A DNA stretch of 64,000 nt from Candidatus Bathyarchaeota archaeon (GTDB lineage: Archaea; Thermoproteota; Bathyarchaeia; Bathyarchaeales; Bathycorpusculaceae): assembly GCA_963780185.1 (NCBI GenBank), contig CAWABA010000003.1:20860-84859 (forward strand). Direction: 5' to 3'. Positions 6,674 through 60,849 of the stretch are shown one piece after another. The position numbers and the translations under genes are program-made. How positions within the stretch are numbered: position 1 is the first letter of the stretch; each line of letters starts with the position of its first letter. The notes beneath the pieces are model-generated. The model was not told where the DNA came from. It ran no database searches and saw only the letters and a program-made list of their open reading frames with translations.

Positions 6674-6710
6674 CAAGAAAGCGTGGGCAAATATCTAAAT
6701 CTGAAAAGCC

Positions 6711-6787
6711 TAGAAATAGACTAATTCTTAGTCCAGAAACTTTGACTTACTTTAGTCAAGGAACTTTTACGAATAGCCTTTTATCGC
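6711..6787 (+). repeat. Conserved double-dyad upstream element, copy 1
   Basis: agtccag-aaac-tttgact-tacttt-agtcaag-gaac-ttttacg-aatagccttttatcg; ATG at 6808 lies 23 nt after TTTTAT. Confidence 0.85.
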
Positions 6788-6807
6788 CTATAAGTTGAAT
6801 GGTTATT

Positions 6808-8031
6808 ATGGGTAGAAAGACTAAAACTTTAGCATCGTTGCTTGTTTTAATATTCCTAATATCCTTAGTTCTATTTTCACCTGCTACCGTAAAAGCAAGT
6901 TCCAAAACTCTTGTCGTTCCAGACCAATACCCAACTATTCAACAGGCAATTAATAATGCACGTACAGGAGATACGGTGTTTGTGAAAGATGGAATATACG
7001 ACCAACCAATAGCAATAGACAAGCCGCTATCTCTTGTGGGGGAAGATAACCAAAAGACCATAATTGCTGAAGAAGAAGCAGTTACCGTTCTGAATCATGT
7101 AACAATAACCATAGGAGCGTCCAACGTATTTCTCTCTGGATTTGCAATTAAAGATTCTAACCGTGCAATAGGTCTATATGGAAATCCGAATGGAGTTAAA
7201 ATAGCTGGAAATAGAATTGTCAATAATTCAATAGGCATACAGCTTGATTCAACCAACATAAACTGGATTATTTCAGGAAATGTTTTTGAAAATAACTCCT
7301 TTGAGGGTATAGTATGCGATGATTCAACAATCAATCTTACAATAACTCAAAACTCGTTCTCTGGTAATTATGCAGCTATAGAAGCTAATGGTGGCAAAAT
7401 AACGATAAGTAACAACCAAATCTTAAACAACTCTTACGGGATATCACTGTACGACACCTCAAACGTAGACATTTTCGAAAATTCCATAACAAACAACAAT
7501 AGATATGATGCCTTGGAATCGGAGTTTGGAGAAACATATGGATTCGGAATATCGTTTGGTTGGAGTTGCAACAACACCAGCATTCACGATAATCTGGTTG
7601 GGAAAAATCCTTACGGTTTCTATCTTGCTAATGTCCAACTAACCGATAAAATGGGAAATAACTATCAGGGTTCAAACAACTTAATTTTTCGCAATAATAT
7701 TATAGGTAATTCCAAGAACGCTTACGTTAGCACTATTTTCCCGAACAACGTTACAGGTCTTTCAAATTTTGTAAATGGGACTGCCCAAGTTTTATGGGAT
7801 AATGGCAACACTGGCAACTATTGGAGCGATTATAATGGTGTTGGAAGCTATGTTATCAACAATAACAATATTGACCACCATCCTCTAACTCAACCAGTCA
7901 GTATTTCCTCTACACCAACTGTTGAACCTAACTTTTCGCCATTACTAATGGTTACTGCTATTGCAATAGTTTTATTGGTAGTAGCCACCGTTTCCCTATT
8001 GGTTTATCGAAGGCATCGAAAAAACAGCTAA
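6808..8031 (+). CDS. NosD/CASH right-handed beta-helix surface protein with C-terminal TM anchor
   Basis: Signal peptide, VPDQYPTIQQAIN, GDTVFVKDGIY, Asn-rich repeats, GNYWSDYNG, DHHPL, TM+RHRK. Confidence 0.85.
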   Translation: MGRKTKTLASLLVLIFLISLVLFSPATVKASSKTLVVPDQYPTIQQAINNARTGDTVFVKDGIYDQPIAIDKPLSLVGEDNQKTIIAEEEAVTVLNHVTITIGASNVFLSGFAIKDSNRAIGLYGNPNGVKIAGNRIVNNSIGIQLDSTNINWIISGNVFENNSFEGIVCDDSTINLTITQNSFSGNYAAIEANGGKITISNNQILNNSYGISLYDTSNVDIFENSITNNNRYDALESEFGETYGFGISFGWSCNNTSIHDNLVGKNPYGFYLANVQLTDKMGNNYQGSNNLIFRNNIIGNSKNAYVSTIFPNNVTGLSNFVNGTAQVLWDNGNTGNYWSDYNGVGSYVINNNNIDHHPLTQPVSISSTPTVEPNFSPLLMVTAIAIVLLVVATVSLLVYRRHRKNS

Positions 8032-29700: not shown

Positions 29701-29812
29701 GGCCCCCGACTACCGTTAAGCCGTCTATGCGCTAAAAAGCGTATATCAATTTTGCGCATTTAAAAGAAAAATCAAAATACCACTTACCCAGACAGTAACC
29801 TGTTGAATGCCA

Positions 29813-41698: not shown

Positions 41699-43399
41699 GT
41701 GAATCACAGGAAAATCTGGCTTGCCGCGGCTCTTATAGCGATAATTGTTGTGTCTTTTTTTGTAGCGTCCAACCTTCTTGCGCCCGCGAAACAAACAGCT
41801 GTGTCTAAGCCTTTTTACGTGGGAATCGAAACGGGGTGGAACGCCACGGCTGCCCAATGTGAAGCTGTGATTAACCAAGTCAAAAATTACTGTAACCTGT
41901 ACATTGTCGCGTCGCCGCAAGTCATCGTGAACGAAACAGCGCTAAACGAGGTGTGTGACTACGCTTACGCGGCGGGAATGTCCTTTATGCCAGAGTTCTA
42001 CCAGCAGTTCTTCGTTAACCCAAACGGCTACACCCCACACGACTGGTTCGTCGCTGCAAAAGCACGCTACGGCGACCGTTTACTCGGCATATATTACTAC
42101 GATGAGCCAGCGGGAAGCCAACTGGATACAACTCAAATCATAAAAAACCCAGTTATAACGCCGACTTCCCCAGCGAAAAGCTACCTGGATTACACTGACT
42201 ACTTCTTTTGGCTTTGGACACACGGCAGCGACGGCGGCTTAACTGCAACTTCAGCTTTCTTTAAAAACGCAAATTCTTCCCTGTTCACTTCAGACTACGG
42301 CTTATACTGGTTCGACTACGACCTCGGATACAACACCGTTCTGGCGCAGTTCGGCTGGAACAACAGCAGACCCATGCAGATTAGCTTGGTCAGAGGCGCG
42401 GCAGAGGCTCAAAACCAAAGTTGGGGCGCCATCATAACCTGGACATACAACGGAACCGAGAACGGAGGCACCTATTTGGAGCCGCCCCCCGAGATGTACA
42501 GCGACATGGTTTTAGCCTACAATTGCGGCGCGTCATACGTATCCATCTACGACTCATCCCAAAACTACGTTGGCACCACACTGAACAGCTCATACTTAAC
42601 GAAACTGCAGGAGTTTTGGAACTACGTCCAGCAGAACCCGAGCAAACAAGGCAGCCTAAAAGCAGACACCGCCGTGGTGCTTCCGCAAGATTACGGCTTC
42701 GGCTTCCGCAGCCAAGACGATTCAGTTTGGCAGTACCGCACAGCCACCGCCTGGACACAGCAACTCTACCTCAACGTCACCACCCTTCTTGACAAATACA
42801 AGTCACGCTTAAACATCGTCTACAGCGACCCCCAATTCCAAAATGCGATCCGCAGCGATTACAGCAAAATCCTGTATTGGCCCAAAAACTTCGACAATGG
42901 CGTAAGCTACCAAATCGTAGACTCAGATAACGGTTTAGGATACAGCACCATCCAAGACGCAGCGTCTTCCTTCGCAACCTATCAAGGACACACCCTCCTA
43001 GTCAAGCCTGGAACCTACCAAGAAAACGTCGCAGTAACCAAACCCGTAGTCTTAGCCAGCCAAAAAACAAACGCCTCCATAATCGAAGGCTCCGCAGACG
43101 GAACCGCGTTAACGATTGAAGCCGACAACGTAACCGTAACTGGGTTCACCATCGAAAACAGTAACCACCCCCTGTCCACGACGGGCACCGGGATCCTGCT
43201 CCAAAACGTCCACAACTGCACGTTAACCAGCAACACGGTAACCTACAACAACGTGGGAGTTTTTCTTGTGAACTCAACCTACAACGTTTTCAGAGGCAAC
43301 GAAATCAACGGCAACATCTACAACCTGCTCTTCCAAAACTCAGAGCCAAACAGCATCGACAGCACCAACATAGTCGGCGGCGAACCATATGCTGGATAA
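41699..43399 (+). CDS. Exported protein: glycoside-hydrolase-like N-terminal domain plus NosD beta-helix C-terminus
   Basis: N-terminal TM; YYDEP, FTSDY; YSTIQDA..VKPGTYQENV..VTVTGFTI. Confidence 0.7.
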   Translation: MNHRKIWLAAALIAIIVVSFFVASNLLAPAKQTAVSKPFYVGIETGWNATAAQCEAVINQVKNYCNLYIVASPQVIVNETALNEVCDYAYAAGMSFMPEFYQQFFVNPNGYTPHDWFVAAKARYGDRLLGIYYYDEPAGSQLDTTQIIKNPVITPTSPAKSYLDYTDYFFWLWTHGSDGGLTATSAFFKNANSSLFTSDYGLYWFDYDLGYNTVLAQFGWNNSRPMQISLVRGAAEAQNQSWGAIITWTYNGTENGGTYLEPPPEMYSDMVLAYNCGASYVSIYDSSQNYVGTTLNSSYLTKLQEFWNYVQQNPSKQGSLKADTAVVLPQDYGFGFRSQDDSVWQYRTATAWTQQLYLNVTTLLDKYKSRLNIVYSDPQFQNAIRSDYSKILYWPKNFDNGVSYQIVDSDNGLGYSTIQDAASSFATYQGHTLLVKPGTYQENVAVTKPVVLASQKTNASIIEGSADGTALTIEADNVTVTGFTIENSNHPLSTTGTGILLQNVHNCTLTSNTVTYNNVGVFLVNSTYNVFRGNEINGNIYNLLFQNSEPNSIDSTNIVGGEPYAG

Positions 43400-43532: not shown

Positions 43533-44111
43533 ATGAAAATCGCAATCATCGGAAAAGGCAATGTTGGCAAAGCCTTGAGCCGTGGCTTAAGCGGCAAGCA
43601 TGAAGTGAAATTTGGTCACCGAGACCCAGAGGAGCCAGTTGCTGACGCCGCAAAATGGGGAGAAGTAATAGTTTTGGCGGTGCCCCACGACAACGCTGAA
43701 GAAGCAATCAGAGAAATCAAGCCTTACGCCGACGGCAAAGTAGTCATCGACGTCATTAACGCCGTAGGGTCGAAGATGGAGCTTGCAATAAGCTGCGCGA
43801 CCTCCACCGCCGAGGAAACCCAAAAGAAGCTGCCTGAGGCGCGGGTGGTGAAGGCGTTTAACACGGTTTTCGCGGGCAACCAAAGCTCGGGCAAAATAGG
43901 CAATGAGCAGTTGACAGCTTTTATCGCAGGCGACGACTCCAAAGCCAAGCAGACAGTTGCCCAACTGACAAGGGACATCGGCTTCGACCCCGTGGACTGC
44001 GGACCCCTCCAAGCGGCACGGTATCTTGATGCGATGGGCATTATGATAATCAATCTTGCCTTCAGCTATGGCATGGGCACAAAAATAGGCTACAAACTGG
44101 TCAGAGACTAA
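43533..44111 (+). CDS. F420:NADP oxidoreductase-family dinucleotide-binding enzyme
   Basis: IIGKGNVG, VLAVP, VVKAFNTV, AGDD, GFDPVDCGPL. Confidence 0.87.
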   Translation: MKIAIIGKGNVGKALSRGLSGKHEVKFGHRDPEEPVADAAKWGEVIVLAVPHDNAEEAIREIKPYADGKVVIDVINAVGSKMELAISCATSTAEETQKKLPEARVVKAFNTVFAGNQSSGKIGNEQLTAFIAGDDSKAKQTVAQLTRDIGFDPVDCGPLQAARYLDAMGIMIINLAFSYGMGTKIGYKLVRD

Positions 44112-44188
44112 GCATCCACTTTATACGATTCTCCAACAAACTTCACGGAAACCTCTGGAACATAAAGGCACCCAACCGTGGGAAAGGG

Positions 44189-44864
44189 TCAATGAGCTGC
44201 ATAATTAGTTTTCCGATGCCTAACTATCACAGCAGCAAAGAGCACGAAAAGAAGTAAAGGCACAATTACCAGCCAAGAAAACTCTGGAATGGCAGGAGTT
44301 GGTGTAGGTGATATAGAGTTTGCAGGTATGGTTAGTGTTTGTGTGCTACTCCAATCGCTTGTTCCAATAATGTCAAAATTTAGGGTTTGGTTAACCAAGA
44401 ACGATTGCACTCTAAAATCCAATGGAACACCGGTGGGAAGGGATTGTACTGATTCGGATATGATTGTGTATTGGGAATCGGATTGGGGAAGTAGACCTGA
44501 TGGAGAGTTTGGGACATAAGGAAGAAGGTTTGTCCAATTTTCAACTAAGTGGCCTTTAATTTTGAACGTTGTAGTACAAAGAGAATAATTTGCCGAGGGA
44601 AGATGCAAAATTGCTGTTTAGAATTGAAATTTTTACAGTTCTGTTATCTACGTGATACCCTTGATTAGTTATGTTTTCTCCTGTGTATGGATTCGTTGAA
44701 TATGTTGTTGGCACTTACATAGGATGCATCAATAAATTTTAGAGTAAACTGTGGGATAGGCGACTGAGTTTTTGTCTGAGCAAATACGGTTTACCCATAA
44801 TTAGGGTAGTGGCAAATAAGATAACAATGAGAAGTAATGAAAAACCCTTGCATCTGCTTTTCAT
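44189..44864 (-). pseudogene. PEF-CTERM-like surface protein, frameshifted in the 5' half
   Basis: ATG at 44864 MKSRCKGFSLLLI; SDWSSTQTLTI..IPEFSWLVIVPLLL..RHRK; paralog of 46809-47585. Confidence 0.7.
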
Positions 44865-44885
44865 ACTTAAGGCAAAGAATGGCTT

Positions 44886-44943
44886 GCGATAAAAGGCTAT
44901 TCGTAAAGGATTCTTGACTAAGAGGAGTCAAGTTCTCTTGACT
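44886..44943 (-). repeat. Conserved double-dyad upstream element, copy 2
   Basis: agtcaag-agaa-cttgact-cctctt-agtcaag-aatc-ctttacg-aatagccttttatcgc; overlaps the last codons of the upstream gene. Confidence 0.85.
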
Positions 44944-45685
44944 TGTTTTTTCGATGGCAAAATATCACGGCAGCAGAGAACAAAGACAGAAGAAAAGGCA
45001 CAATCACCCACCAAGTTAGCTCTGGAACGGCAGGAGATGAGGTTGGAGTTGGCGTTGGTGAGGTTGAGGTAGAACTTGCAGGTATGGTTATTGTTTGGGT
45101 TGGGCTCCAACCACTTGTTATGTATGTCCAAGTGCCAGTGTCTCCGTGTGGAGCGAATGGATGAAAAGTTACTATGATTGCTTCAACTTGTAAATCTATT
45201 TGACCATATCCTTGGTAATATATGAAACGATATTCCTGTGCTTCAATTTGATTTTCAGATAAATATAGTGAAAGTGAAGTATTTTCAGAGGAATTATTTT
45301 GGGGAACAAGAAATTCTCGCGCCTCTGAATCTGTAAAAATCTCTGTCCAATTTTCTTGTGAATGCCCCTTGTAGCGGACATTGTAATTAAAACTAGTTAA
45401 GTCATCAGGTGGCAGAAAAGGTTGGTTTTTTATGATTATTTGCACGGTCTCATTTTGCACTTGTTTTGTAGTACTCTGCCCTGATGCGTCAATGGTTGTT
45501 ATGTTATTGGGAACAAGAGCAAATTTAGCGGTAAATTGCGGAACAGATGGCGTAGGTATGGGAACAGAAGAAGTTGTAGGTGTAGAGGTCTGACCGCTTG
45601 CAGGTTTAATCATCAATAGATTTAGACTTGAAATAGCCATTATTAGAATCAGAATTAATGCGAAACTTTTACCTGAACTTCCCAT
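44918..45685 (-). CDS. PEF-CTERM-like surface protein
   Basis: Signal peptide, PSVPQF, IKNQPF, YNVRYKGH, SGWSPTQTITI, VPELTW-TM-HRK. Confidence 0.82.
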   Translation of the reverse strand: MGSSGKSFALILILIMAISSLNLLMIKPASGQTSTPTTSSVPIPTPSVPQFTAKFALVPNNITTIDASGQSTTKQVQNETVQIIIKNQPFLPPDDLTSFNYNVRYKGHSQENWTEIFTDSEAREFLVPQNNSSENTSLSLYLSENQIEAQEYRFIYYQGYGQIDLQVEAIIVTFHPFAPHGDTGTWTYITSGWSPTQTITIPASSTSTSPTPTPTSSPAVPELTWWVIVPFLLSLFSAAVIFCHRKNKSRELDSS

Positions 45686-45706
45686 ATTATCTCTTAGAAC
45701 CTGTTT

Positions 45707-45767
45707 GCGATAAAAGCCTATTCGTAAAGGTTCCTTGACTAAGCTGAGTCAAAGTTTCTTGACTAAC
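45707..45767 (-). repeat. Conserved double-dyad upstream element, copy 3
   Basis: agtcaag-aaac-tttgact-cagctt-agtcaag-gaac-ctttacg-aataggcttttatcgc. Confidence 0.85.
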
Positions 45768-46093
45768 TAAGAGAAGTGTCAATTTCTCATGGCAGAGAGG
45801 CATTCTGAGAAGGGGTCTGTTCTGTTTCCTTGCTTCTTTGAAGTCTGTAGATGAAGATTAGGTTCATTGCCACTGTGATAAAGAATATCCAAAAAGGAAG
45901 GTTAGGCAAATTTATTATACCGTGCAGGTCAACCCATGTGCCACCCGAAAATACCATGCTCTGCGTAAATGTAAACCAAAAAGGGTCTGCATGGACGCTC
46001 CCAATAATCGGGTATTCCCCAATTGATTCTTTCCCATACGTAGGCGCTTGTCCCCCAAAAAATCAGAGCCAAAAAAGCGTCAATGTAAAACGT

Positions 46094-46714
46094 TCAAGAG
46101 GCTCTTGGAGTAACTATCATCTCTAAACCAATTCCTGAATAGTAAGTTAAGAGTTGTGAGTTCTCATTGGCATTAAGTTGTGTGGCTTTTCCTAAGCTTA
46201 TGTCGATTGAGTATTGACCAATTGGTGCATTTTGGGCTAGGTTAATTGTAAGAAGGATTGAATTAGACATGTCAGGTTGCAACGTTACCTGATTTTGGCT
46301 AAATGAGTAGTTGAAGGCTTGTTGCTGAATAGCAGAATAGTTGCCATTGCTATCTATCCAACGGTGCAAGTCTACTATACTGCTGAAGTAAGTTACGGTG
46401 AGGTTTTCAATTGGTATTCTTATCGGTTGGTTAGTTAATGACATGAAGGTTATGTTTACTTCCAAAGGTAACCCTTGAGAAACATTATTGTAGAAACCGT
46501 TGTATCCAGACACTTCCGTAACTTGGGGATTTAGAACGGAACAATTATGATCGTACAGAGGGACTGGAGTAGGCGTAATTTTCGGATTAACGTTTCCTGT
46601 TCTTGCTTTGCTGCTTTCAAAAAGATATACTGCTACAGACGCTACAACAACGATTGCAATTAACAAGAGAGCAATTGCAGTTTTTCTATAGGAAAGCTTC
46701 TGCATCTGTTTCAC
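46094..46714 (-). CDS. Membrane-anchored Ig-like hypothetical protein
   Basis: N-terminal TM; LTINLAQNAPIGQYSI. Confidence 0.7.
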   Translation of the reverse strand: MKQMQKLSYRKTAIALLLIAIVVVASVAVYLFESSKARTGNVNPKITPTPVPLYDHNCSVLNPQVTEVSGYNGFYNNVSQGLPLEVNITFMSLTNQPIRIPIENLTVTYFSSIVDLHRWIDSNGNYSAIQQQAFNYSFSQNQVTLQPDMSNSILLTINLAQNAPIGQYSIDISLGKATQLNANENSQLLTYYSGIGLEMIVTPRAS

Positions 46715-46808
46715 TTTCTTGTCATATAGGCGGTTTAGTTCTTTAAACTATATTTTAGAACAAGTAGTCATCCGCATTGGCACAGTATGCATTTGCGTGG
46801 GAAAAAGT

Positions 46809-47585
46809 CTATTGCTTCAAGTTATCGGTTTTTCGATGCCTAATCAGGATGGCGATGCAGAAGACAGAAAGAAGCAAAGGCAAAATCACCAACCAAGGCA
46901 ACTCAGAAACAGTCGGGGTTGAACTTGAACTGGAAACTTGACCTATCGTTATAGTTTGCGTGTCGCTCCAATCGCTTGTTTGGCCAGTAAAGAAATACCC
47001 TGAACCCATTCCGACCGAGTAGGCTTCGCTATATATGTACCCGAATTGTGCTTGCACTTGAAATTCAACTTGGGTGCCTTCAGGTGGTGTTTCTGCGCCA
47101 GTATATTCTGTTAACTGCTCTAGAGTAATTGAAATGTTAGTGTAATCTGCGTTTGAAGCCGAATAATAGATGAAGGACGGACCGCCTAATCCTCCATAGG
47201 TATGTGTGCTTACGTTTCCGTCAAATGGGTAGTAAGTCCATGAGTTTCCATGTGTCCCCTTAAATCTAAAGTTGTAGTATAAATTTGTATAATTCCCACT
47301 TGAATCATCGAAAGAAATGAAGGGTTGATTCTTGATCGTAAATTCCACGCTTCTACCATCTACATGGTAACCTGCTTGGATTGTGATGTTCTGTCCTGTG
47401 TATTGGTCTACGCCATATTTGGGTGGAACATCGTACGAATAATCAACATAATTGACTATAAATTGCGGGACAGATGGTTTAGAAGTTGACTGAGCAAATG
47501 CTGGCCTAATAGCCAACAGACTTAGGCTTGGGATAACCATTATAAGAATCAGAAGTAAACCCGAGCTCTTACTTAGATTGCTCAT
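46809..47585 (-). CDS. PEF-CTERM-like surface protein
   Basis: Signal peptide, KPSVPQF, IKNQPF, YNFRFKG, SDWSDTQTITI, VSELPW-TM-RHRK. Confidence 0.82.
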   Translation of the reverse strand: MSNLSKSSGLLLILIMVIPSLSLLAIRPAFAQSTSKPSVPQFIVNYVDYSYDVPPKYGVDQYTGQNITIQAGYHVDGRSVEFTIKNQPFISFDDSSGNYTNLYYNFRFKGTHGNSWTYYPFDGNVSTHTYGGLGGPSFIYYSASNADYTNISITLEQLTEYTGAETPPEGTQVEFQVQAQFGYIYSEAYSVGMGSGYFFTGQTSDWSDTQTITIGQVSSSSSTPTVSELPWLVILPLLLSVFCIAILIRHRKTDNLKQ

Positions 47586-47608
47586 GATTTATTCTTATGA
47601 ATTGAAGT

Positions 47609-47668
47609 CGATAAAAGCCTATTCGTAAGGGTTTCTTGACTGGGCTAAGTCAAGGTTTCTTAACTAAC
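47609..47668 (-). repeat. Conserved double-dyad upstream element, copy 4
   Basis: agttaag-aaac-cttgact-tagccc-agtcaag-aaac-ccttacg-aataggcttttatcg. Confidence 0.85.
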
Positions 47669-47735
47669 AATCACTAATATTTTTAGACATGAAAAGTTTG
47701 AAAATGACCCATTTTCGATGCCTCAGAAAGTCTGA

Positions 47736-48641
47736 TTACTTATTACCAATTATTTTTTTCGTCGCCTTTCTTTTTATAAGAATAGCAATAGTGATAACTG
47801 CTAGAATTAAAATAACGATTATTGCTATCAAAACGGGATACAAGGGATTTATGATTGTAAAGTAAATGGTTTTTGAGGCTACCGTGTTTCCCACGGTGTC
47901 ACTGGCATAAACAACTATGCTGTGGTGTCCATCAGACAAGTTTGTCAGAGTTGTGTTTCCATTTATTGTTGCGTTGGCGCGGTTGTCGAGGCTGTAATTC
48001 AGGGAGGCGTAATCGCCATCAACTCCAAAATGAAGCGGAACACTCCTCCAGTAGTACGTTTGGTTACCGGGAGACTTCATCGATATCGTTGGAGGCGCCG
48101 CAACAGTGAAATTCAATGTTTCACTGCTTGCCAACGTAGCATAACCGAAAACTCCGCCCCAATACAACGCAACCTTCGTGACTGTAAAGTTGATGTATTG
48201 ATGCCCAAGGGGGATATCTGTCCAAACCAAGCTTTTTGTCACAGAGCCTGGCGGTCCGTTTCCGGTCCATTGGTTGAGTTCAGCTGGGTTCCCACTCCAA
48301 CGGTAAATGGTTACTGGAGAATATGGTATCCAACTTGCTTTGTATGAAACTTGTAGAACGCCTACGGCTCTTCCCTCTGGAGAAGTGTTGGCAACCGCCG
48401 TTAAGTTCAGCTTGAAGGGTTGATTTGCTTGCAGGTTGAACGACGGATTATTATACCAATATATAGTTGCGCCGTTTGATAGGGTGAATGTGAAGAATGG
48501 AGACCACTCATCGGAAGTTGGGGGTCCTTGTTGGATTTCTTGTGCTGAAACGTTACGTAAGGCTGGAATTATTAATCCTGCCAAAAGACAGAGCGCAATA
48601 ATGAACGCTAATGTTTTCTTCATGCTGTTGCCAACTGTCAT
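47736..48641 (-). CDS. Secreted Ig-like domain surface protein with C-terminal TM
   Basis: SPGNQTY..YSLD..GNTTLTNLSDGHHSIVVYASDTVGN. Confidence 0.8.
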   Translation of the reverse strand: MTVGNSMKKTLAFIIALCLLAGLIIPALRNVSAQEIQQGPPTSDEWSPFFTFTLSNGATIYWYNNPSFNLQANQPFKLNLTAVANTSPEGRAVGVLQVSYKASWIPYSPVTIYRWSGNPAELNQWTGNGPPGSVTKSLVWTDIPLGHQYINFTVTKVALYWGGVFGYATLASSETLNFTVAAPPTISMKSPGNQTYYWRSVPLHFGVDGDYASLNYSLDNRANATINGNTTLTNLSDGHHSIVVYASDTVGNTVASKTIYFTIINPLYPVLIAIIVILILAVITIAILIKRKATKKIIGNK

Positions 48642-48660
48642 TGCTTAAATCAATTTAAAG

Positions 48661-48729
48661 AGGCTTTTCATCAAAATTTCTTGACTAAGCTTCGTCAAGG
48701 TTTCTTGAGTAAGAATTAGTCGATTTCTA
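48661..48729 (-). repeat. Conserved double-dyad upstream element, copy 5 (shares TAGAAATxGACTAATTCTTA flank with copy 1)
   Basis: tagaaatcgactaattctt-actcaag-aaac-cttgacg-aagctt-agtcaag-aaat-tttgatg-aaaagcct. Confidence 0.8.
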
Positions 48730-48731
48730 CG

Positions 48732-49404
48732 CTATGCGGATTTAAGAATTATCGTGCTTTCAAAAAGGGAAAAACTGTGGCTTGCCGTGAGAAAAGGTCT
48801 AGCTAGTAACCTTTCTTTTTTCGTGCTTTTTCCATAAATTGTAATTCCCATTCCCGACAAGGCAACAGCTACTCCAACATAGAGAACCTGAAAGGGAAGC
48901 AGAGGAACATTTTGAGTTCCACTTCTATAATGGGTTTCATTCCATAACTGCTCTATTTGCCAATGCACATCGTTTGCAGAAACTGTCCCTGAACTGTGGA
49001 AAACAAAGTTGTAGGTTGAATTCTTAGGAACTACCCAATCGGTGTTAACCACAGTTACGTTTGGATAGGATAAGTAGGGTGAGGAACCAGCATTGCTGGT
49101 TAGGCCTTTGCTTCCATCACCTACGTAAAAATCAATTTTCTGACCCGAAGTGACGTTAACCTGAATATTCAAAAAATCTCCTGCACTAAGGGTAATTCCA
49201 TCAGCCCAGTCTGCGGTTGGATCCACTACTCCAAACGAAGGACCCAGAAGACCAAAGCGGTCTACGAGGACGGTTGATTTTGGAACTTGGTATGCCTCGG
49301 TTTTGTTTTGGGGAACGGCAACAAAAGTGAAGGCGCTAAATAGAATCCCGAGGGCAAGGATAATAATTCCAATCGCCGCTGCTGCTTTTTTCGTTGCTTT
49401 TCAC
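48732..49404 (-). CDS. Membrane protein with GOLD/emp24-like beta-sandwich; indel in A-run near the start
   Basis: Frame open upstream of 49226 through a TM (AAAIGIIILALGILF); IDFYV, TYNFVF; C-terminal TM. Confidence 0.55.
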
Positions 49405-49607: not shown

Positions 49608-49893
49608 GCAGAAAACCAAAACCCACGCGAACCCGCGCTTGCCACTGAGAAACGCTGCGCCCAAAACTGACAATGCCATCTCAATTGAGTCAATATAGCA
49701 AGCCTCATTCCGCCCATAGCAAAAGTCGCAACGCCCATCCCGCAACATGCCACACGAAGCACCGCCCATCCGCCAACATAGAACACGACCAAACACGACC
49801 AGACCTACAAGCCCTACAAGCCCCAAACCAAAAAAGCAACACAGAAAACAAACAGAAAAAAGTCTCAACTTTTCACAGGACAAAAGTCGCAAC
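49608..49893 (+). repeat. Dispersed non-coding element, copy A
   Basis: Matches 52608-52843, e.g. CACGACCAGA.CTACAAGCCCT.CAAGCCCCAAACC and AAAAGTCTCAACTTT.CACAGGACAAAAGTC.CAAC. Confidence 0.85.
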
Positions 49894-49944
49894 AAAAAAT
49901 CTCTTCCAAAACCCGCCCGAAAACCCCGCGGAAAACAGCCCCTC

Positions 49945-50290
49945 CCAGTCGCCGACGACGGGCACAGGAATCCTCCTCCAAAACGCCCACGGCTGCTTCA
50001 TCGCCGACAACCTCGTCACGAACAACTACAACGGCGTACTCCTCGTCAACTCTACAGCAAACACATTCAGAAGCAACATAATCAACGGGAATGTCAACGG
50101 CTTCCTGTTTCTGAATTCTTCGCCCAACGACATCGACGCCTCCAACATAGTAAACGGCAAGCCGTACAGCCCGTAACGAAGCTCTTCGAAGCTAACGAAA
50201 CCGAAGCGGTAACCCCTCCTCTTCGAATAGAAGCCCCCTGTTATAGGCACCATACAGTCACAACTTCTAAAGAGCATATCAGATCCTGAA
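49945..50290 (+). pseudogene. 3' fragment and downstream flank of a paralog of 41699-43399
   Basis: TTGTGILLQNAH..IDASNIV vs TTGTGILLQNVH..IDSTNIV; shared downstream TACAGTCACAACTT.TAAAGAGC. Confidence 0.75.
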
Positions 50291-50325: not shown

Positions 50326-50570
50326 ATTGATTTAAGTTACTGTTTTTTCGATGCCTAAGTATCATCGCAACAGAGAGCATAGAAAGAAGTAAAGGCACAA
50401 TCGCCAACTAAGAAAACTCTGGAACGGCAGCAGTTAGAGTTCGAGATGTAGGCAGAGTTGGGTTTGAAGAATTCGGATCTGTTGTTGCAGAAATTACTGA
50501 TGAAGGAGTTAGAGATGCAGAGGAAGGAACTGAAGAAGCCGTTGGAGGTGGGGCACCCTCCTCGCACCTA
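50326..50570 (-). pseudogene. Orphan PEF-CTERM-like tail remnant
   Basis: Ser/Thr/Pro linker, then AVPEFS*LAIVPLLLSMLSVAMILRHRKNSNLNQ; TAG stands where paralogs have TGG. Confidence 0.7.
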
Positions 50571-50625
50571 AGGACTCTGGTTTCGCTATTGCGAAAAAAA
50601 TTCGTAAAAAAGAAAAGTTTGGTTT

Positions 50626-52443
50626 CTAATGGAAAGCTGCTTTTAAGTGTTTGTTGAAGTGCAGGTTGCTGAGTTTTGTCTTGAAGACTGCATAAGCTAT
50701 GAAAACGATGAAGCATGCTCCAAGTGCACCTATTGGACCCAATGTGTATTCTGGTAACGCAAAAGGCGAAGACAGAACCGTCACTGAAACAGCAGTAGAA
50801 TTCACTGCAACGCCGTTATTGTCAGTTACTTGAAGTATGAAGCCCCAGCTTCCCGGAGCCGTTGAAGATAAAGTCGCAAAGTTGTAGCTATCTGAATTTG
50901 CTCCGTCAATAGATATGTAAGAGGATGCACCAGGAGCCTCGGCAAACCATTGATATGTATAAGGAGAAGCGCCTGAATTTACAATAGACGATAGAGTGCT
51001 GCTTTGACCTAGATTGATCGTGTTTGCAGAAGCAGAAATCGAGGGAGCAACCAAAACGTTACTTTGCAGGTTTATGTTGAGGGTTGTGTCGCCGCTAACC
51101 GTCACCGACTCCTGAGCACTAACCAAGTTAGACCCAGAAGAAGGAAAAACATACAGCGTATAAGACCCAACAGGAACACCCGCAATCACATAATGACCAG
51201 ACGAATCAGTATAACCACCTCCAGCCAAGCTGCCATCAGCGGCATTATACAAGTCAACTTGAGCGTTATTGACGCCTGAACCATCAGGAGCCAAAACATA
51301 ACCAGAAACCGTATACCCAACTTGCAAAGTTATCGTGGGTACGATTGTGTCACCGCTAACCGTCACCGACTCCTGAGCACTAACCAAGTTAGACCCAGAA
51401 GAAGGAAAAACATACAGCGTATAAGAGCCATCAGGAACACCCGCAATCACATAATGACCAGACGAATCAGTATAACCATCTCCAGCCCCGTTGCCATCAG
51501 CGGCATTATACAAGGCGACATAAGCATTGGCAACGCCTGAACCATCAGGAGCCAAAACATAACCAGAAGCAGTATACCCAACTTGTAAAGTTATGTTAAG
51601 GGTTGTGTCGCCGCTAACCGTCACCGACTCCTGAGCACTAACCAAGTTAGACCCAGAAGAAGGAAAAACATACAGCGTATAAGACCCAACAGGAACACCC
51701 GCAATCACATAATGACCAGACGAATCAGTAGAAACATCTCCAGCCCCGCTGCCATCAGCGGCATTATACAAGTCAACTTGAGCGTTATTGACGCCTGAAC
51801 CATCAGGAGCCAAAACATAACCAGAAACAGTCTCCAAAGTGATATCAATCGTCATGCTGCCTGAAACCGTCACAGAATCTGTATATGCGAGAAACCCATT
51901 ATTCGAGTAAACGTTCATAGTGTATGTTCCCGCTGGAACGCCGGATATTGAATAATAACCAGAAGAATCAGAATAAACAGCTCCAACCAAGCCGCCAGAA
52001 AGACCATACATGTTAACCCAAAAATTTGAACAGCCTGAACCGTCAGAAAGCAAAACATGGCCAGAAACCGTATACCCAACTTGCAAAGTTATCGTGGGTA
52101 CGATTGTGTCACCGCTAACCGTCACCGACTCCTGAGCATAACCGAGGCCAGACCCCGAAGGAGGATAAACATACAGCGTATAAGAGCCATCAAGAACACC
52201 CGCAATCACATAATGACCAGACGAATCAGTAGAAACAATTTCAATCGAGCTGCCATCAGCACTATACAAGACGACATAAGCATTGGCAACGCCTGAACCA
52301 TCAGGAGCCAAAACATAACCAGAAACCGTATAAGTCGATGTGCCGCCTCCATCTGCTTTAGCCATGTGTATTGTTCCAAATACGGAAACTGTGATTATTA
52401 AGAGACTTAGTAATAGAATTATCGGGATTGCTTTCTTATTCAT
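50626..52443 (-). CDS. Surface protein with five carboxypeptidase-regulatory-like (transthyretin-like) repeats and LPEY-TM anchor
   Basis: SGYVLAPDGSGV..TDSSGHYVIAGVP.GSYTLYV repeats; signal peptide. Confidence 0.85.
   Translation of the reverse strand: MNKKAIPIILLLSLLIITVSVFGTIHMAKADGGGTSTYTVSGYVLAPDGSGVANAYVVLYSADGSSIEIVSTDSSGHYVIAGVLDGSYTLYVYPPSGSGLGYAQESVTVSGDTIVPTITLQVGYTVSGHVLLSDGSGCSNFWVNMYGLSGGLVGAVYSDSSGYYSISGVPAGTYTMNVYSNNGFLAYTDSVTVSGSMTIDITLETVSGYVLAPDGSGVNNAQVDLYNAADGSGAGDVSTDSSGHYVIAGVPVGSYTLYVFPSSGSNLVSAQESVTVSGDTTLNITLQVGYTASGYVLAPDGSGVANAYVALYNAADGNGAGDGYTDSSGHYVIAGVPDGSYTLYVFPSSGSNLVSAQESVTVSGDTIVPTITLQVGYTVSGYVLAPDGSGVNNAQVDLYNAADGSLAGGGYTDSSGHYVIAGVPVGSYTLYVFPSSGSNLVSAQESVTVSGDTTLNINLQSNVLVAPSISASANTINLGQSSTLSSIVNSGASPYTYQWFAEAPGASSYISIDGANSDSYNFATLSSTAPGSWGFILQVTDNNGVAVNSTAVSVTVLSSPFALPEYTLGPIGALGACFIVFIAYAVFKTKLSNLHFNKHLKAAFH
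51065..52330 (-). repeat. Intragenic ~255-bp tandem repeats (four near-identical, one divergent)
   Basis: Blocks such as CCGCAATCACATAATGACCAGACGAATCAGTA and GCCTGAACCATCAGGAGCCAAAACATAACCAGAA recur four times. Confidence 0.9.
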
Positions 52444-52974: not shown

Positions 52975-53532
52975 TTGTCAAATAAACTTGGAACAATTGA
53001 AGAACGCAAGGCAGAAGTCCTTATTAAACTTCGAAAATACAAGCTTATTGAAAAAGAAACAGGCAAGTACGAAGGCGCCATATCCTACATCATCGACATT
53101 CCGCAAGACAAAGAAAAAGCCCTAATCTGGTGCATTCTAGGCGAAGCAACCGTAGGCATAGCAGCAATGAACACCCTGTATAAAGTGATGAAAGAAAAAG
53201 AAATCGACCGCGCAATAGTCGTCACGGAAGGACGCTACACACACGCAGTGAAGCTTGGCGCAAAAAAGAAGCAGGTTGAACTGCTACCGAAGTCTTTCCC
53301 AGTCTTCGACATATTCGAACACGCCCTTGTCCCGCTACATGAAATGCTAAGCGAAAAAGAAAAAACCGCACTTCTCACCCAATACAAGGTCAAGCCGTAC
53401 CAGATGCCGCAGATAAAGTCAGGCGACCCAGCAGTCAAAGCGATAGGCGCAAAACCCGGTGACGTTCTAAGAATCACCAGAAAAAGCACAACCGCCGGCG
53501 AACACATAACATACCGATACGTGGTAGAGTAA
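52975..53532 (+). CDS. rpo5: RNA polymerase subunit Rpo5/RpoH with Rpb5-like N-terminal extension
   Basis: C-terminal [14 protein letters not shown]-like..[29 protein letters not shown]. Confidence 0.92.
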
Positions 53533-53653: not shown

Positions 53654-54211
53654 TTATTTGGCGATCATTACTTCTGTTGACTTCACGATTGCTTCAACTT
53701 CGTCGCCTACCTTAAGGTCAAGGTCCTCGACGGCGTCTTTAGTGATAACGGCAGTTACGGTTACAGGCATCTTCACTTCAACCTTCACTTTAGCAGTAAT
53801 CACGCCTTTCTCAACAGCCACAACTTTACCTTTAAAACGGTTCCTTGCACTCAACTTCAAACCTTTCACCTCCACACTTCCCGAACTTGACAAAACCTTA
53901 TCCAAATAGCTCTCAGCTTGCTTATACTCAACCAGCAAGCTCCGACCCAAATCCGTCAGATTTGCGCCGCCTCCCCCAGCTTTCCCGCCTTTGAAAGTTT
54001 CAACTATCGGCTGATCAAGAGTCTTCTGAATTTCCTGCAGGTAATTCCACACGTAACGATACGACATGCTTAGGGTTTGGGCAGCTTTCGAAATGGAGCT
54101 TTCTTTGTCGACGGCTTCAAGAATCTCTGCTCCCCCTTTACCTATCAACGGCTGATCTTTGTATTCCAGCCAAACCTTGCATGAGAGCTTATGTTTTTTG
54201 TCAGAAAGCAT
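53654..54211 (-). CDS. modE: ModE-family regulator (wHTH plus TOBE/Mop)
   Basis: SISKAAQTLSMSYRYVW, GGKAGGGANLT, SARNRFKG, AIVKSTEV. Confidence 0.9.
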   Translation of the reverse strand: MLSDKKHKLSCKVWLEYKDQPLIGKGGAEILEAVDKESSISKAAQTLSMSYRYVWNYLQEIQKTLDQPIVETFKGGKAGGGGANLTDLGRSLLVEYKQAESYLDKVLSSSGSVEVKGLKLSARNRFKGKVVAVEKGVITAKVKVEVKMPVTVTAVITKDAVEDLDLKVGDEVEAIVKSTEVMIAK

Positions 54212-54297: not shown

Positions 54298-54690
54298 TTA
54301 GAACTCCAACTCGCCTTTCACAAATTTGCTGGAAATCTCGCATTTTGGGTTCTCGAAGAAGTCGTTGGCGGATGCTGCTTCCACTATTTCCCCGTTGTAG
54401 ATGTGCACTATCTCGTCCGCTATTCTTCTTGCCTGAGTCAGATTGTGCGTAGCCATCACTATGATACGTTCGGGGCTTTTCTGGCTGACAATGGCTTTCT
54501 CAATTATCGCTGCACTGTTCGGGTCCAAGTTGGCTGTAGGCTCATCCAGCAGCATTATGTGGGGTTCAAGCAGGAACGCTCTTGCAAGCGAAATTCTCTG
54601 CTGTTCGCCGCCTGAAGTTTTCTTTGCCCTTCGCTTCTCGAACCCTGAAAGCCTCAATGCCTGCAACTCGGCGCTAACTCTTCTTAAAAA
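54298..54690 (-). pseudogene. C-terminal half of a TupC-like oxyanion ABC ATPase
   Basis: SGGEQQR, LLDEPTANLDP, ATHNL, FVKGEL present; no Walker A or permease. Confidence 0.7.
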
Positions 54691-54720
54691 AGCACAGGAG
54701 TCCACACAAAGCACAGGCAT

Positions 54721-60384: not shown

Positions 60385-60391
60385 TGAAAAC

Positions 60392-60832
60392 ATGAATGAA
60401 GTTAGACCAGTTGATATATTGCTCGTTGAGGATAATCCTGGAGACGTTCGTTTAACCAAAGAAGCTTTAAGAGACGCAAAAGTACTAAACGAAATCTACG
60501 TTGCTAAAGACGGCGTTGAGGCTATCGAATTCTTGCGTAGAAAAGGTCGATTTTCGAAGGTGCCTTTGCCTGATTTAATACTACTTGACCTTAACCTGCC
60601 GAAAAAAGATGGGCGCGAAGTTCTGGCTGAAATAAAAGAAGACCCAATCTTAAAACACATCCCAGTTGTGGTCCTGACAACCTCCAAGGCTGACGAGGAC
60701 ATAGTTAAAACATACAACTTGCATGCCAACGCCTACATCACAAAACCAGTTGACCTTAACCGCTTCGCAGAAATCATACATGTACTGAACGAATTTTGGT
60801 TCACAATAGTTAAACTGCCACCGAAGGAATAA
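60392..60832 (+). CDS. Single-domain response regulator (Rcp1-like)
   Basis: LLVEDNPGD, LLDLNLP, LTTS, YITKP. Confidence 0.93.
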   Translation: MNEVRPVDILLVEDNPGDVRLTKEALRDAKVLNEIYVAKDGVEAIEFLRRKGRFSKVPLPDLILLDLNLPKKDGREVLAEIKEDPILKHIPVVVLTTSKADEDIVKTYNLHANAYITKPVDLNRFAEIIHVLNEFWFTIVKLPPKE

Positions 60833-60849
60833 AATCGACAAAAATTCTT

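Follow-up and report, generated by a model that had tools for sequence, protein, structure and literature searches.

The binding sites of Ptr2, an Lrp-family regulator of Methanocaldococcus jannaschii, are tandem palindromes just upstream of the core promoter. The core sites of integrons (attC/attI) and of Xer/dif systems are inverted heptamers around a 6-bp centre, which repeat at each array junction. As described in PMC6396743, the -43 to -84 region of the flaB promoter of Sulfolobus acidocaldarius holds a pair of inverted repeats of 15 bp each, and the membrane-bound HTH activators ArnR and ArnR1, controllers of surface structures, need both of them for binding; the same account gives Lrp sites as 13-17 bp long and AT-centred. 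Archaeal activation through TBP or TFB recruitment is presented as established for Ptr2 and TFB-RF1 (PMC11705074), and a haloarchaeal case of general-factor paralogues directing gene sets is reported in PMC2396416. The archaeal core promoter, as outlined in PMC7289017, comprises a TATA box, an A-rich BRE and a T(A/G) initiator, which overlaps the start codon in leaderless mRNAs.

The DNA stretch analysed here (the window, 64,000 nucleotides of a Candidatus Bathyarchaeota genome) holds five copies of a ~56-nt element, all present at the positions given by the first-pass annotation. They are listed with their nhmmer E values against a profile of 65 copies (see below):

Copy A, 44889-44943, minus strand (E = 1.3e-16): distal dyad 44926-44943; proximal dyad 44902-44919; AATAGCC 44895-44901; TTTTAT 44889-44894.
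Copy B, 45710-45764, minus strand (E = 5.5e-20): distal dyad 45747-45764; proximal dyad 45723-45740; TTTTAT 45710-45715.
Copy C, 47611-47665, minus strand (E = 9.2e-18): distal dyad 47648-47665; proximal dyad 47624-47641; TTTTAT 47611-47616.
Copy D, the most diverged, 48654-48710, minus strand (E = 7.6e-13): distal dyad 48693-48710; proximal dyad 48669-48686; AAAAGCC 48662-48668; TCTTTAAA 48654-48661.
Copy E, 6730-6786, plus strand (E = 7.7e-19): distal dyad 6730-6747; proximal dyad 6754-6771; BRE-like AATAGCC 6772-6778; TTTTAT 6779-6784.

The 65-copy profile finds these five copies in the window and nothing else. A profile made from the five alone returns the same five (E <= 1.7e-16), their reverse-strand self-matches (E 0.003-0.007) and a next best match at E = 0.26. 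AGTCAAG-N4-CTTGACT with at most two mismatches occurs eight times in the window compared to a mean of 0.17 in 100 shuffles, none of which had eight, and this excludes a chance origin of the copies; seven of the matches lie inside the five elements, and the eighth, at 22790, stands alone. The N6 strings reported earlier are correct, the BRE/TATA part of copy D has diverged to AAAAGCC-TCTTTAAAT, and the array is indeed co-oriented and AT-rich (40.3% GC vs 46.4% in the window).

An exact-pattern scan of one genome per species (185,579 species) yielded 61 loci (labelled L), 59 of which are titled Bathyarchaeota or Bathyarchaeia; chance expectation is ~4 matches (uniform model, 19 specified bases in 596 Gb). 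L018 is plainly a chance match and was rejected; L028, from a MAG titled as bacterial, carries the complete element on a contig of 5 kb. The element recurs in 31 public Bathyarchaeia MAGs; together with the window these hold 65 real copies. Profile scanning added 23 copies in 18 loci, all on the strand of the primary copy. Most copies are single and lie between ordinary housekeeping genes (RuBisCO, thermosome, glutamine synthetase, Cdc6, proteasome, fibrillarin). The readable flank is 2 kb on each side of a match, hence the regulon size is a lower bound.

The consensus reads TTAGTCAAGAAAnnTTGACTAA, 2 nt, TYAGTCAAGrAAnyTTTACGAA, TAGsC and TTTTATC: two tandem imperfect palindromes of ~22 bp each (TTAGTCAA-N6-TTGACTAA, 24 bp centre to centre), immediately followed by a conserved BRE-like stretch rich in A and by the TATA box, TTTTAT(C). 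The 65 copies of the logo were collected with a pattern fixing 19 positions and the spacing, and invariance at those positions is no evidence; GTCAAGAAA at positions 2-10 and CTTTTAT at 49-55 are near-invariant although they were free in the pattern. The conservation edges are sharp, with information content at background upstream of position -1 and past the TATA box. The earlier description of conserved arms around a variable N4 fails at the family level: the first three N4 bases of the distal dyad, not imposed by the search pattern, are AAA in 63-64 of 65 copies. The bases of the seventh arm pair are complementary in just 9/65 distal and 24/65 proximal dyads, which leaves TTAGTCAA-N6-TTGACTAA, rather than 7-nt arms with N4, as the true symmetry. 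The proximal dyad is kept as an imperfect repeat (TTTACG instead of TTGACT, two conserved mismatches), and no compensatory change was found for any pair of arm positions in the 65 copies. In profile-found copies the dyad centres are either 23-24 bp or 34-35 bp apart, the longer spacing, greater by one helical turn, being seen in L001, L026 and L054 and for the third dyad of L036, and one to three dyads may be present, while the gap between the last dyad and the T-run is constant at 6-8 nt, spacing variants included. Isolated dyads away from promoters are at chance level (17 vs ~11 expected). The lack of compensation, the helical-turn spacing and the chance-level isolated dyads suggest that the dyads act like protein sites.

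In four window copies the gap from TTTTAT to ATG is 24, 24, 25 and 23 nt, matching the 23-25 nt noted earlier. An ATG ORF follows 55 copies; in 39 of them the start codon is 29-33 nt past the first T of TTTTAT (30-31 nt in 33), and a pyrimidine (T or C) precedes it in 38 of these 39. The fixed distance and the preceding pyrimidine agree with the core-promoter description of PMC7289017 and fit leaderless mRNAs, with transcription presumably starting at or beside the A of the ATG. Judged from this geometry, the dyads would occupy about -80 to -62 and -56 to -38.

The genes behind the window copies, and one gene inside the array, are:

Gene A, 44189..44864, minus strand: VPEF/VPQF family, ATG at 44864, frameshifts and in-frame stops.
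Gene B, 44918..45685, minus strand: VPEF/VPQF family, 255 aa.
Gene within the array without an element, 46094..46714, minus strand: 206 aa, N-terminal TM segment.
Gene C, 46809..47585, minus strand: VPEF/VPQF family, 258 aa.
Gene D, 47736..48641, minus strand: 301 aa, Ig-like region, C-terminal TM and KRK anchor.
Gene E, 6799..8031, plus strand: NosD/right-handed beta-helix protein (Pfam NosD 1.3e-14, Beta_helix 5.3e-12).

The reading frame of gene A shifts after ...IMGKP and again further on (three-frame read); its anchor-tail DNA (44209-44305) is conserved, and intact relatives exist in L038 and L058. The distal dyad of copy A lies within the coding end of gene B, whose stop codon (44918-44920) falls in the flank of the proximal dyad. 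Gene B encodes a signal peptide, a linker rich in T and P, and a tail made up of VPEL, TM and HRK, and its ATG is 30 nt past the first T of TTTTAT. For gene C, AlphaFold2 (22-sequence alignment; pLDDT 78.5, pTM 0.65) predicts a beta-sandwich flanked by a signal helix at the N-terminus and a TM helix at the C-terminus; all PDB matches of the model are weak and fall on FN3-type receptor domains (best E = 0.008). Genes A, B and C are paralogues, thus part of the similarity between element copies reflects shared descent. The 46094..46714 gene has no nhmmer match upstream and no Pfam family. The signal peptide of gene D probably begins at the second ATG (48623); the gene is a singleton in clustering, with weak matches below the cut-off (Big_13 2.8e-4, OmpL47-type 8.5e-5). 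Gene E encodes a signal peptide and a C-terminal TM with an RHRK anchor, clusters with L017, L026, L036 and L060, and likely starts at its second ATG (6808), 29 nt past the first T of TTTTAT, as is usual in the family.

The earlier claim of at least three unrelated folds is secure in the window for two, the beta-helix and the beta-sandwich, while across all loci it is amply borne out. The 54 downstream proteins of at least 100 aa fall into 18 unrelated BLAST clusters (VPEF family 25, NosD beta-helix 5, two more families 4 each), and beta-propellers are also among the element-headed products. A signal-peptide-like N-terminus is found in 50/54, and a C-terminal uncharged stretch with a basic cluster in 42 of the 51 complete proteins. 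In 26 of these 51, PE[FL] stands ahead of the anchor stretch, and these tails, which follow a Thr/Pro-rich linker, are often PEF-CTERM-like: similarly to PEF-CTERM/archaeosortase signals (TIGR03024 and relatives) they consist of (V/I)PE(F/L), a hydrophobic helix and an RHRK-type basic cluster. TIGR03024 is among the matches listed for 10 of 14 tails; however, only one of the 14 reaches its curated cut-off (L027, 26.7 vs 23 bits), and other CTERM models (Heimdall-CTERM, PEFG-CTERM) give similar scores. Window genes D and E differ from PEF-CTERM proteins in having a plain TM and basic anchor without PEF, and no archaeosortase gene is present among the window ORFs.

The nearest analogue of the element is the ArnR box pair of Sulfolobus. 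Both are tandem inverted repeats upstream of BRE/TATA (here inferred at about -80 to -38), both have surface targets, and the DUF7347 lead (see below) is, like ArnR, a membrane-tethered HTH protein. The two differ in archaeal lineage and in sequence, the 15-bp TCGAC-N5-GTCGA of ArnR contrasting with a 22-bp TTAGTCAA-N6-TTGACTAA; ArnR is described at a few type-IV-pilus promoters, whereas the Bathyarchaeia element heads at least 18 unrelated Sec-exported, anchored families in 32 genomes; and binding and activation are demonstrated for ArnR (PMC6396743) and predicted for the Bathyarchaeia element. Recruitment of TBP/TFB is proposed here as for Ptr2 and for TFB-RF1 of Pyrococcus (PMC11705074). 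Unlike for Ptr2, an Lrp-family gene linked to the element was not found, and the 22-bp site with its non-palindromic GAAAnn centre fits poorly to the 13-17-bp AT-centred Lrp sites described in PMC6396743.

We propose that the element is probably a lineage-specific composite promoter of Bathyarchaeia, in which tandem regulator sites abutting BRE/TATA recruit an activator and define an envelope-protein regulon. Comparative data support this reading, the first of two offered by the first-pass annotation: it is favoured by the occurrence in 32 genomes, the register with BRE/TATA and the start, the 18 protein clusters, the housekeeping neighbours and the helical-turn spacing. A putative dimeric helix-turn-helix regulator would bind each palindrome, so that two dimers would share one face of the helix; the dimer nearer the promoter would contact and recruit TFB/TBP, and the entire set of envelope-protein genes would thereby be turned on jointly. 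Activation rather than repression is suggested by where the sites lie, upstream of BRE. The core promoter itself is highly conserved, which implies that the activator may be dispensable, and synonymous conservation in the first codons and anchor tails points beyond a simple upstream operator. A gene for a membrane-tethered wHTH protein (DUF7347) lies near four loci, and provides a lead to a candidate regulator. The search for co-occurring transcription-factor genes thus gave a lead at these four loci and no linked candidate in the window, where no regulator gene adjoins the array and the TrmB-, PadR- and ModE-like genes are 5 to 30 kb off, without a link to the element.

Many archaeal regulators activate or repress according to the position of their site. 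If the dyads were operators, a dimer on the BRE-abutting proximal site would keep TFB/TBP off until released by a signal; 7 nt separate the end of the proximal dyad from the T-run, the dyad continues into the BRE-like ACGAATAG, and the strongly conserved BRE/TATA may suffice alone. We consider repression unlikely, as both sites are entirely upstream of TATA, a distal centre near -71 gives a repressor little, and the ArnR boxes (-43 to -84), the documented example of this arrangement, serve an activator (PMC6396743).

Similarly improbable is that the constant ends, besides their promoter role, are recombination handles, the 5' module (element and first codons) and the 3' module (linker and anchor tail) both being kept at the DNA level while homologous recombination swaps or duplicates surface-protein cores between slots. 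Where amino acids are identical, codon choice agrees at a fraction of 0.63 of sites within the first 11 codons vs 0.35 expected (223 between-MAG pairs) and at 0.58 vs 0.33 in the anchor tail (317 pairs); for the conserved VPEF-family core motif the values are 0.45 vs 0.45. Anchor-tail DNA is 72-85% identical across unrelated genes and genomes, copies occur in tandem arrays and in several cases are truncated or frameshifted, and L010 and L021 share flanks (RuBisCO 81%, AMP-phosphorylase-like 78%), element (84%) and tail (81%) around unrelated central coding parts. Codon-level conservation and this one slot with a replaced core could reflect homologous exchange. However, it is the only replaced slot among pairs with conserved flanks, and ongoing homogenisation is weak, copies being 79.2% identical within and 77.0% between genomes (permutation p = 0.012, largely due to one MAG). 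The synonymous conservation could also come about by selection on leaderless initiation, membrane-segment codon choice or overlap of the tail with the next promoter, and the frameshifts may be assembly errors.

In some archaea, sets of genes are directed by paralogues of the general factors, and the BRE-like stretch and TATA are conserved as strongly as the dyads; the 56 nt might thus be an extended core promoter for a paralogous TFB/TBP pair, or simply be inherited with duplicated genes, with no separate regulator. This is very unlikely: TFB/TBP contacts span ~15 bp, while the dyad symmetry, the tandem unit, the one to three dyads and the helical-turn insertions mark sites of a dimeric regulator, and 18 unrelated gene clusters, 32 genomes and sharp conservation edges speak against mere descent.

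In the second reading of the first-pass annotation, CTTGACT-N6-AGTCAAG is a tyrosine-recombinase core site of an integron-like system moving promoter-bearing surface-gene cassettes. As in attC/attI and Xer/dif sites, inverted heptamers flank a 6-bp centre, and co-oriented tandem arrays with junction repeats are common (23/23 extra copies on the primary strand); several upstream genes enter the next element at a fixed junction, inter-locus homology often stops at the element 3' edge (L021, L047, L060), and a Phage_integrase gene lies ~650 nt upstream at one locus (L060:447-1343). Tyrosine recombinases require matching overlap regions, and this reading is hardly tenable given that the 6-bp centres are all distinct within a genome (window 5/5, JBJKPJ 7/7, CAVYHV 5/5, JBEKWR 4/4) and 16-17 bp long in L001, L026 and L054 with outer dyads intact, that sequence rather than structure is conserved, without the compensatory changes that preserve attC hairpins, that every gene has its own BRE/TATA promoter, that copies are mostly solitary among housekeeping genes, that the second breakpoint of the replaced slot is in anchor-tail coding DNA outside any element, and that integrase domains occur in 1 of 235 neighbour ORFs and, as already stated for the window, in none of its 71 scanned ORFs.

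Copies D and E share an additional conserved upstream stretch, U1, of ~37 nt:

U1 of copy D, 48711..48750, minus strand: its sequence can be aligned to that preceding copy E and to L045, L051, L056 and L058.
U1 of copy E, 6693..6729, plus strand: its sequence can be aligned to that preceding copy D and to eight loci (L005, L020, L042, L051, L053, L056, L058 and, in part, L038).

The U1 of copy E looks like a degenerate third repeat unit.

All five copies of the element that the first-pass annotation had placed in the window were recovered, four on the minus strand (copies A to D, 44889-48710) and one on the plus strand (copy E, 6730-6786). The five align without gaps over about 58 nt, with similarity decaying at both sides. 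A single-dyad pattern allowing up to two mismatches gave eight matches against 0.17 expected from 100 dinucleotide-preserving shuffles of the window, none of which reached eight; seven of the eight fall in the five elements, the remaining proximal dyads having three mismatches. The profile scan proposed in that annotation, built on the five copies, returned those five only from the 64-kb window (E <= 1.7e-16), the next best match standing at E = 0.26, reverse-strand self-hits (E 0.003-0.007) aside. Neither the profile nor the dyad searches found further element copies or single dyads in the window. The window DNA is archaeal, its genes including RpoH, eIF6, prefoldin, FtsY/SRP54, and aldehyde:ferredoxin and 2-oxoacid:ferredoxin oxidoreductases; its G+C content is 46.4%, compared with 40.3% in the array (44100-48760) and 36.7% in gene E. 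Over the whole window, Rfam at the gathering threshold gave no match and ARAGORN no gene, and the element was on this ground rejected as a described RNA.

A pattern of 19 specified bases that fits all five window copies was run against one genome per species of 185,579 bacterial and archaeal species, for which about four chance matches are expected (our own uniform-model estimate). It returned 61 loci (L001 onwards), 59 of them titled Candidatus Bathyarchaeota or Bathyarchaeia. L018, from a Firmicute metagenome-assembled genome (MAG), has neither distal dyad nor TATA and is a chance match; the element in L028 is complete and sits on a 5-kb contig from a MAG whose title is bacterial. After removal of overlap duplicates, 65 real copies remained, 60 public ones from 31 MAGs and the five of the window, with up to seven copies per MAG on different contigs. 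None of the loci matches the window identically; local identity reached 90-91% at best (over 80-145 nt), so that the window's own genome is apparently not one of the species genomes scanned. A profile of the 65 copies added 23 more diverged copies in 18 loci, all on the strand of the primary copy; element arrays are thus frequent. In several arrays, for example at window copy A and in L009, L024, L029, L033, L043, L052 and L055, the anchor tail of the upstream gene runs into the next element with a fixed junction. The element is dispersed through the ordinary chromosome: a Pfam scan of 235 ORFs in 59 loci, up to 2 kb from the elements and with the element-headed genes counted in, listed RuBisCO large subunit, AMP-phosphorylase-like glycosyltransferase, thermosome, glutamine synthetase, Cdc6, proteasome alpha, SBDS, fibrillarin/Nop, SepSecS and ammonium transporters as neighbours. 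Concerted evolution within genomes was considered and set aside, the excess of within- over between-genome identity being small (79.2% vs 77.0%, permutation p = 0.012); since copies of one genome are only slightly more alike, strong ongoing homogenisation is unlikely. Full-text searches, which cover journals other than subscription ones, gave no description of the motif or of Bathyarchaeia surface-gene promoters.

With position 1 as the first A of the distal AGTCAAG and lower case for weakly conserved bases, the 65 copies give the logo (T)(T)AGTCAAGAAA(c)(t)TTGACT(a)A n n (T)(Y)AGTCAAG(R)A(A)(c)(y)TTTACGAATAG(S)CTTTTAT(C), in which the 19 positions and the spacing fixed beforehand by the pattern bias the picture and carry no weight. 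Conservation is high at positions that the pattern left free as well, namely GTCAAGAAA (positions 2-10, 57-64 of 65 copies), T18 (61 of 65) and CTTTTAT (49-55, 57-63 of 65), and information content is at background directly upstream of position -1 and beyond position 56. The four bases inside each dyad, which had been described as variable, are AAA and one free base. The seven-base arms stand in part: the symmetric portion is TTAGTCAA-N6-TTGACTAA, and the seventh pair is complementary in merely nine of 65 distal and 24 of 65 proximal dyads. This unit is directly repeated with a 24-bp period, the proximal unit being a conserved imperfect copy, with C:T at one pair in 53 of 65 and A:G at another in all 65, the latter forced by the pattern. 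Two or more tandem dyads stand directly upstream of BRE/TATA in all 65 pattern-found copies, a layout that the pattern fixes.

In archaea, the TATA box is centred about 26-27 nt before the transcription start. Of the 55 copies with a downstream ATG ORF that is at least 45 codons long or reaches the end of the locus, 39 have their ATG 29-33 nt beyond the first T of TTTTAT (33 of them at 30-31 nt), and in 38 of these 39 the ATG is preceded by T or C. From the TATA distance and the pyrimidine at -1, we infer that transcription starts at the ATG. The TATA box would then lie at about -31 to -25 with the BRE-like ACGAATAG just upstream, and the dyads at about -56 to -38 and -80 to -62. Archaeal promoters, as described in a review (PMC7289017), have a 7-8-bp TATA box, a juxtaposed A-rich BRE and a T(A/G) initiator, which overlaps the start codon where mRNAs are leaderless. 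The features of a leaderless promoter are present in the element, with TATA CTTTTATC at positions 49-56, the BRE-like stretch before it and the pyrimidine before the ATG. Eleven copies, the chance match L018 included, have no qualifying ATG ORF; among them L011 and L045 have TTG starts. Truncated or frameshifted genes are headed in L014, L029, L053 and by window copy A, and in L006 the element has no visible gene.

The dyads are best read as protein-binding sites. Selection on a hairpin or cruciform was rejected, no compensatory change between the arms being found: none of the six core pairs of each dyad shows more than one Watson-Crick type, the inner and flank positions, which seldom pair, stay at three or fewer, and the mismatches of the proximal dyad are themselves conserved. 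The profile-found copies, which are free of the pattern constraint, carry between one dyad (L041) and three (L036). Dyad centres in these copies are spaced either 23-24 bp apart or, in L001, L026 and L054 and for the third dyad of L036, 34-35 bp, with no intermediates among those examined, and the last dyad keeps a constant 6-8 nt to the T-run. An insertion of one helical turn leaves both sites on the same face of the DNA, and the helical phasing expected of cooperating dimers is present. Dyads do not occur alone outside these promoters, loose ones numbering 17 in 288,545 nt vs about 11 expected. What we say of function is inferred from sequence: the predicted pair of regulator sites would work like the ArnR boxes or the upstream activating sites of Ptr2 type. 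It resembles this functional kind, that of the ArnR box pair (PMC6396743) and the Ptr2-type sites (PMC11705074), in site layout, helical phasing and core-promoter features. By this analogy, the element would be a new and unusually well-defined regulon element in an uncultivated archaeal class, its presumed mechanism not being surprising.

The 54 downstream proteins of at least 100 aa, trimmed of their first 35 and last 45 residues, group into 18 BLAST clusters. The frameshifted window gene A is unclustered and belongs to the VPEF/VPQF family by sequence.

Clusters of proteins encoded downstream of the element
VPEF/VPQF family, about 250 aa: 25 members, window genes B and C included
NosD-type beta-helix: 5 members, window gene E included
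Second beta-helix-like family: 4 members
WQK...IQTSDGG family: 4 members
Two small clusters: 2 members each
Singletons: 12, window gene D included

The products include PQQ/BamB-type and YVTN beta-propellers, a GH32/43-like domain, a GOLD domain and a DUF998 membrane protein. Simple sequence rules assign to 50 of the 54 a basic N-terminus followed by at least 14 uncharged residues; a C-terminal uncharged stretch with a basic cluster occurs in 42 of the 51 complete proteins, preceded by PE(F/L) in 26 of the 51. TIGR03024 (PEF-CTERM) was listed for 10 of 14 tails (E 4.6e-6 to 1.7), one of the 14 reaching the curated cut-off, and for whole proteins one of 56 gave E below 0.01, so that the predicted anchor tail is PEF-CTERM-like and no more. 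No archaeosortase gene was found in the 64-kb window. An AlphaFold2 model of gene C (22-sequence alignment, pLDDT 78.5) places a beta-sandwich between the signal helix and the membrane helix. Compared with the PDB, it gave weak matches to FN3-type domains, none at E <= 0.001; the fold of the VPEF family is confidently modelled as a beta-sandwich, of an FN3/Ig-like kind and no closer. With 50 of 54 signal-like N-termini, 42 of 51 anchor-like tails and 18 unrelated clusters, what these genes have in common is predicted export to the cell surface and anchoring there, rather than a fold or an enzymatic function. Three surface-protein genes of the window have no element:

41699-43396, NosD-like gene
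46094-46714, gene within the array
50626-52443, CarboxypepD_reg gene, with anchor-tail DNA at 50344-50435

Bathyarchaeia are abundant, and hardly any genetic or transcription data exist for them. A sharply bounded promoter module, about 56 nt long and common to dozens of envelope-protein genes in many species, would give the class a first concrete regulon and cis-element, and is of interest to the field. The element could serve as bait to fish out its regulator, and together with signal peptide and anchor it offers a ready native promoter set for expression work. Its fixed ATG distance would mark true leaderless start codons, and its presence would flag surface proteins that have no database family.

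As to the regulator, the DNA-binding candidates of the window were set aside, none of them adjoining an element:

15912-16223, TrmB-like
19484-19861, PadR
53657-54211, ModE-like

Winged-helix genes of the DUF7347 family lie up to 2 kb from an element in three loci:

L019:2134-3045 (-), N-terminal wHTH, one membrane segment and an outer domain
L036:3683-4033 (+), 117 aa, the ORF ending at the locus edge before any membrane segment
L052:2836-3579 (-), wHTH with several membrane segments

Over 114 aa, the proteins of L019 and L036 share 76% identity, and a C-terminal fragment of their type stands at the edge of L002 (1-75). DUF7347 genes thus adjoin different element-bearing genes in four different MAGs, an adjacency which, taken without a background frequency for the domain, is suggestive of a candidate regulator family. 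No element or dyad lies upstream of the DUF7347 genes, and their self-regulation was rejected on this ground; tblastn with the candidates found no relatives in the window, and an ESM Atlas look-up of the L019 candidate gave no usable match. The parallel with the ArnR and ArnR1 proteins of Sulfolobus, which are membrane-bound (PMC6396743), makes DUF7347 a reasonable first candidate, and nothing more.

Several observations do not follow from a plain operator model. Between MAGs, the same codon is used at identical amino acids in the first 11 codons at a rate of 0.63 vs 0.35 expected from codon usage (223 pairs), and in the anchor tail at 0.58 vs 0.33 (317 pairs), the control, a conserved core motif of the VPEF family, giving 0.45 vs 0.45. 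This synonymous conservation could stem from selection acting on leaderless initiation, from codon choice within membrane segments, from the tail overlapping the promoter that follows, or from recombination. In L010 and L021, the two flanks correspond (81% and 78%), as do the element (84%) and the tail DNA (81%), but the central coding parts are unrelated; the replaced slot lies between RuBisCO and the AMP-phosphorylase-like gene, and the upstream flank recurs in L032, there with a VPEF gene after it. Only three locus pairs have at least 250 nt of conserved upstream flank, too few for synteny-break statistics. The excess synonymous identity at both ends, the one replaced slot and the frequent tandem arrays would fit a modular surface-protein system of which the promoter would be one half, a reading that we consider unlikely: a 5′ module (element and first signal-peptide codons) and a 3′ module (linker and PEF-like anchor), both kept alike in nucleotides, would let homologous recombination act on the variable core in fixed chromosomal slots, replacing it, duplicating it or silencing it. 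If the constant ends did also drive core exchange, the element would point to archaeal surface variation, and such a system would be an archaeal way to vary the cell surface.

Far less probable still is the integron-like interpretation of the first-pass annotation, in which inverted arms form a tyrosine-recombinase site and promoter-bearing cassettes are shuffled, and which we hold to be very improbable. Two points alone speak for it: the arrays, which are co-oriented, and a tendency of inter-locus homology to end where the element ends on its 3′ side, which selection on the element alone would also produce. Partner sites of such a recombinase would have one identical central overlap of fixed length, 6-8 bp. 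However, the central 6-mers are all distinct in eight of nine genomes with at least three copies (four of five in CAVXXA), including five of five in the window and seven of seven, five of five and four of four in other MAGs. The centre is not of fixed length either, being 16-17 bp in L001, L026 and L054, where the one-turn insertion destroys the central inverted repeat that had been taken for the recombinase core. Sites of the attC type keep their structure by compensatory change and vary in sequence, whereas in the element the sequence is conserved and hairpin covariation absent; each gene has its own promoter, and a recombinase linked to an array is absent. That the window holds no recombinase was borne out, none of its 71 ORFs of at least 90 aa having an integrase, recombinase or transposase domain, and the 235 ORFs of the 59 loci include one Phage_integrase (L060:447-1343) and three transposases (L048, L054, L059).

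Upstream extensions of the element likewise do not follow from a plain operator model. The first, U1, is about 37 nt long, precedes 10 copies including window copies D and E, and resembles a third, degenerate repeat unit with a centre 2 nt shorter:

6693-6729 (+), U1 upstream of copy E
48711-48750 (-), U1 upstream of copy D
L005, L020, L042, L051, L053, L056 and L058, further loci with U1

The U1 copies of different genomes resemble one another as much as those in the window do, a sign of selection on the sequence rather than of recent duplication. Read from its other strand, U1 resembles an ACG/BRE/TATA-like arrangement that faces outward from the gene; a divergent gene is not consistently found beside it. 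In L036, L045 and L049, the interval from the end of an anchored-protein gene to the element that follows holds a run of four closely spaced G(G)TACC motifs, 10-50 nt before that element; these look like a second, different cluster of putative binding sites. A conserved stretch of some 90 nt, which includes a 10-bp inverted repeat (CTTTAACTAT...ATAGTTAAAG), is found upstream in L021, L032 (+ copy), L047 and L060 and partly in L010; it lies between the RuBisCO gene and the element in L010, L021 and L032, and no RuBisCO is near it in L047 and L060. Directly 3′ of the stop codons of anchored-protein genes, a motif of about 25 nt, (T)AGAC(C/T)TTTT(C/T)CCACGG..., may be a shared 3′ end or terminator signal:

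46790-46808 (-) and 48765-48795 (-), the motif in the window
L002, L014, L027, L028, L041 and L059, the motif upstream of the element

Truncated genes, and genes broken up between overlapping reading frames, were also seen in the window:

29807-31079 (+), MFS transporter
44189-44864 (-), gene A
49673-50289 (+), NosD-like
50355-52443 (-), CarboxypepD_reg tail
54298-54720 (-), ABC ATPase fragment

Similar breaks are present behind elements in L012, L014, L029, L040, L050 and L053; such genes are pseudogenes or assembly errors, and many may be the latter. At 8011-8155 (+), 145 nt are 91% identical to L010 1056-1199, with differing neighbouring genes and no Rfam or tRNA match in the stretch; it takes in the final 21 nt of gene E with the stop codon and a further 124 nt beyond, the L010 counterpart likewise covering the end of the element-bearing gene and the DNA behind it. 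The gene at 52975-53529 (+) fuses an N-terminal Mrr_cat / NA-iREase1-like domain of the restriction-endonuclease fold (aa 17-104) to an RpoH/Rpb5 C-terminal domain (aa 111-183, E = 7e-30), a long subunit H that recalls full-length eukaryotic Rpb5. Some 7 kb from the array, 56086-62251 (+) encodes a 1432-aa sensor kinase (MEDS, seven PAS, HisKA, HATPase), followed on its 3′ side by two receiver-only response regulators and a second histidine kinase.
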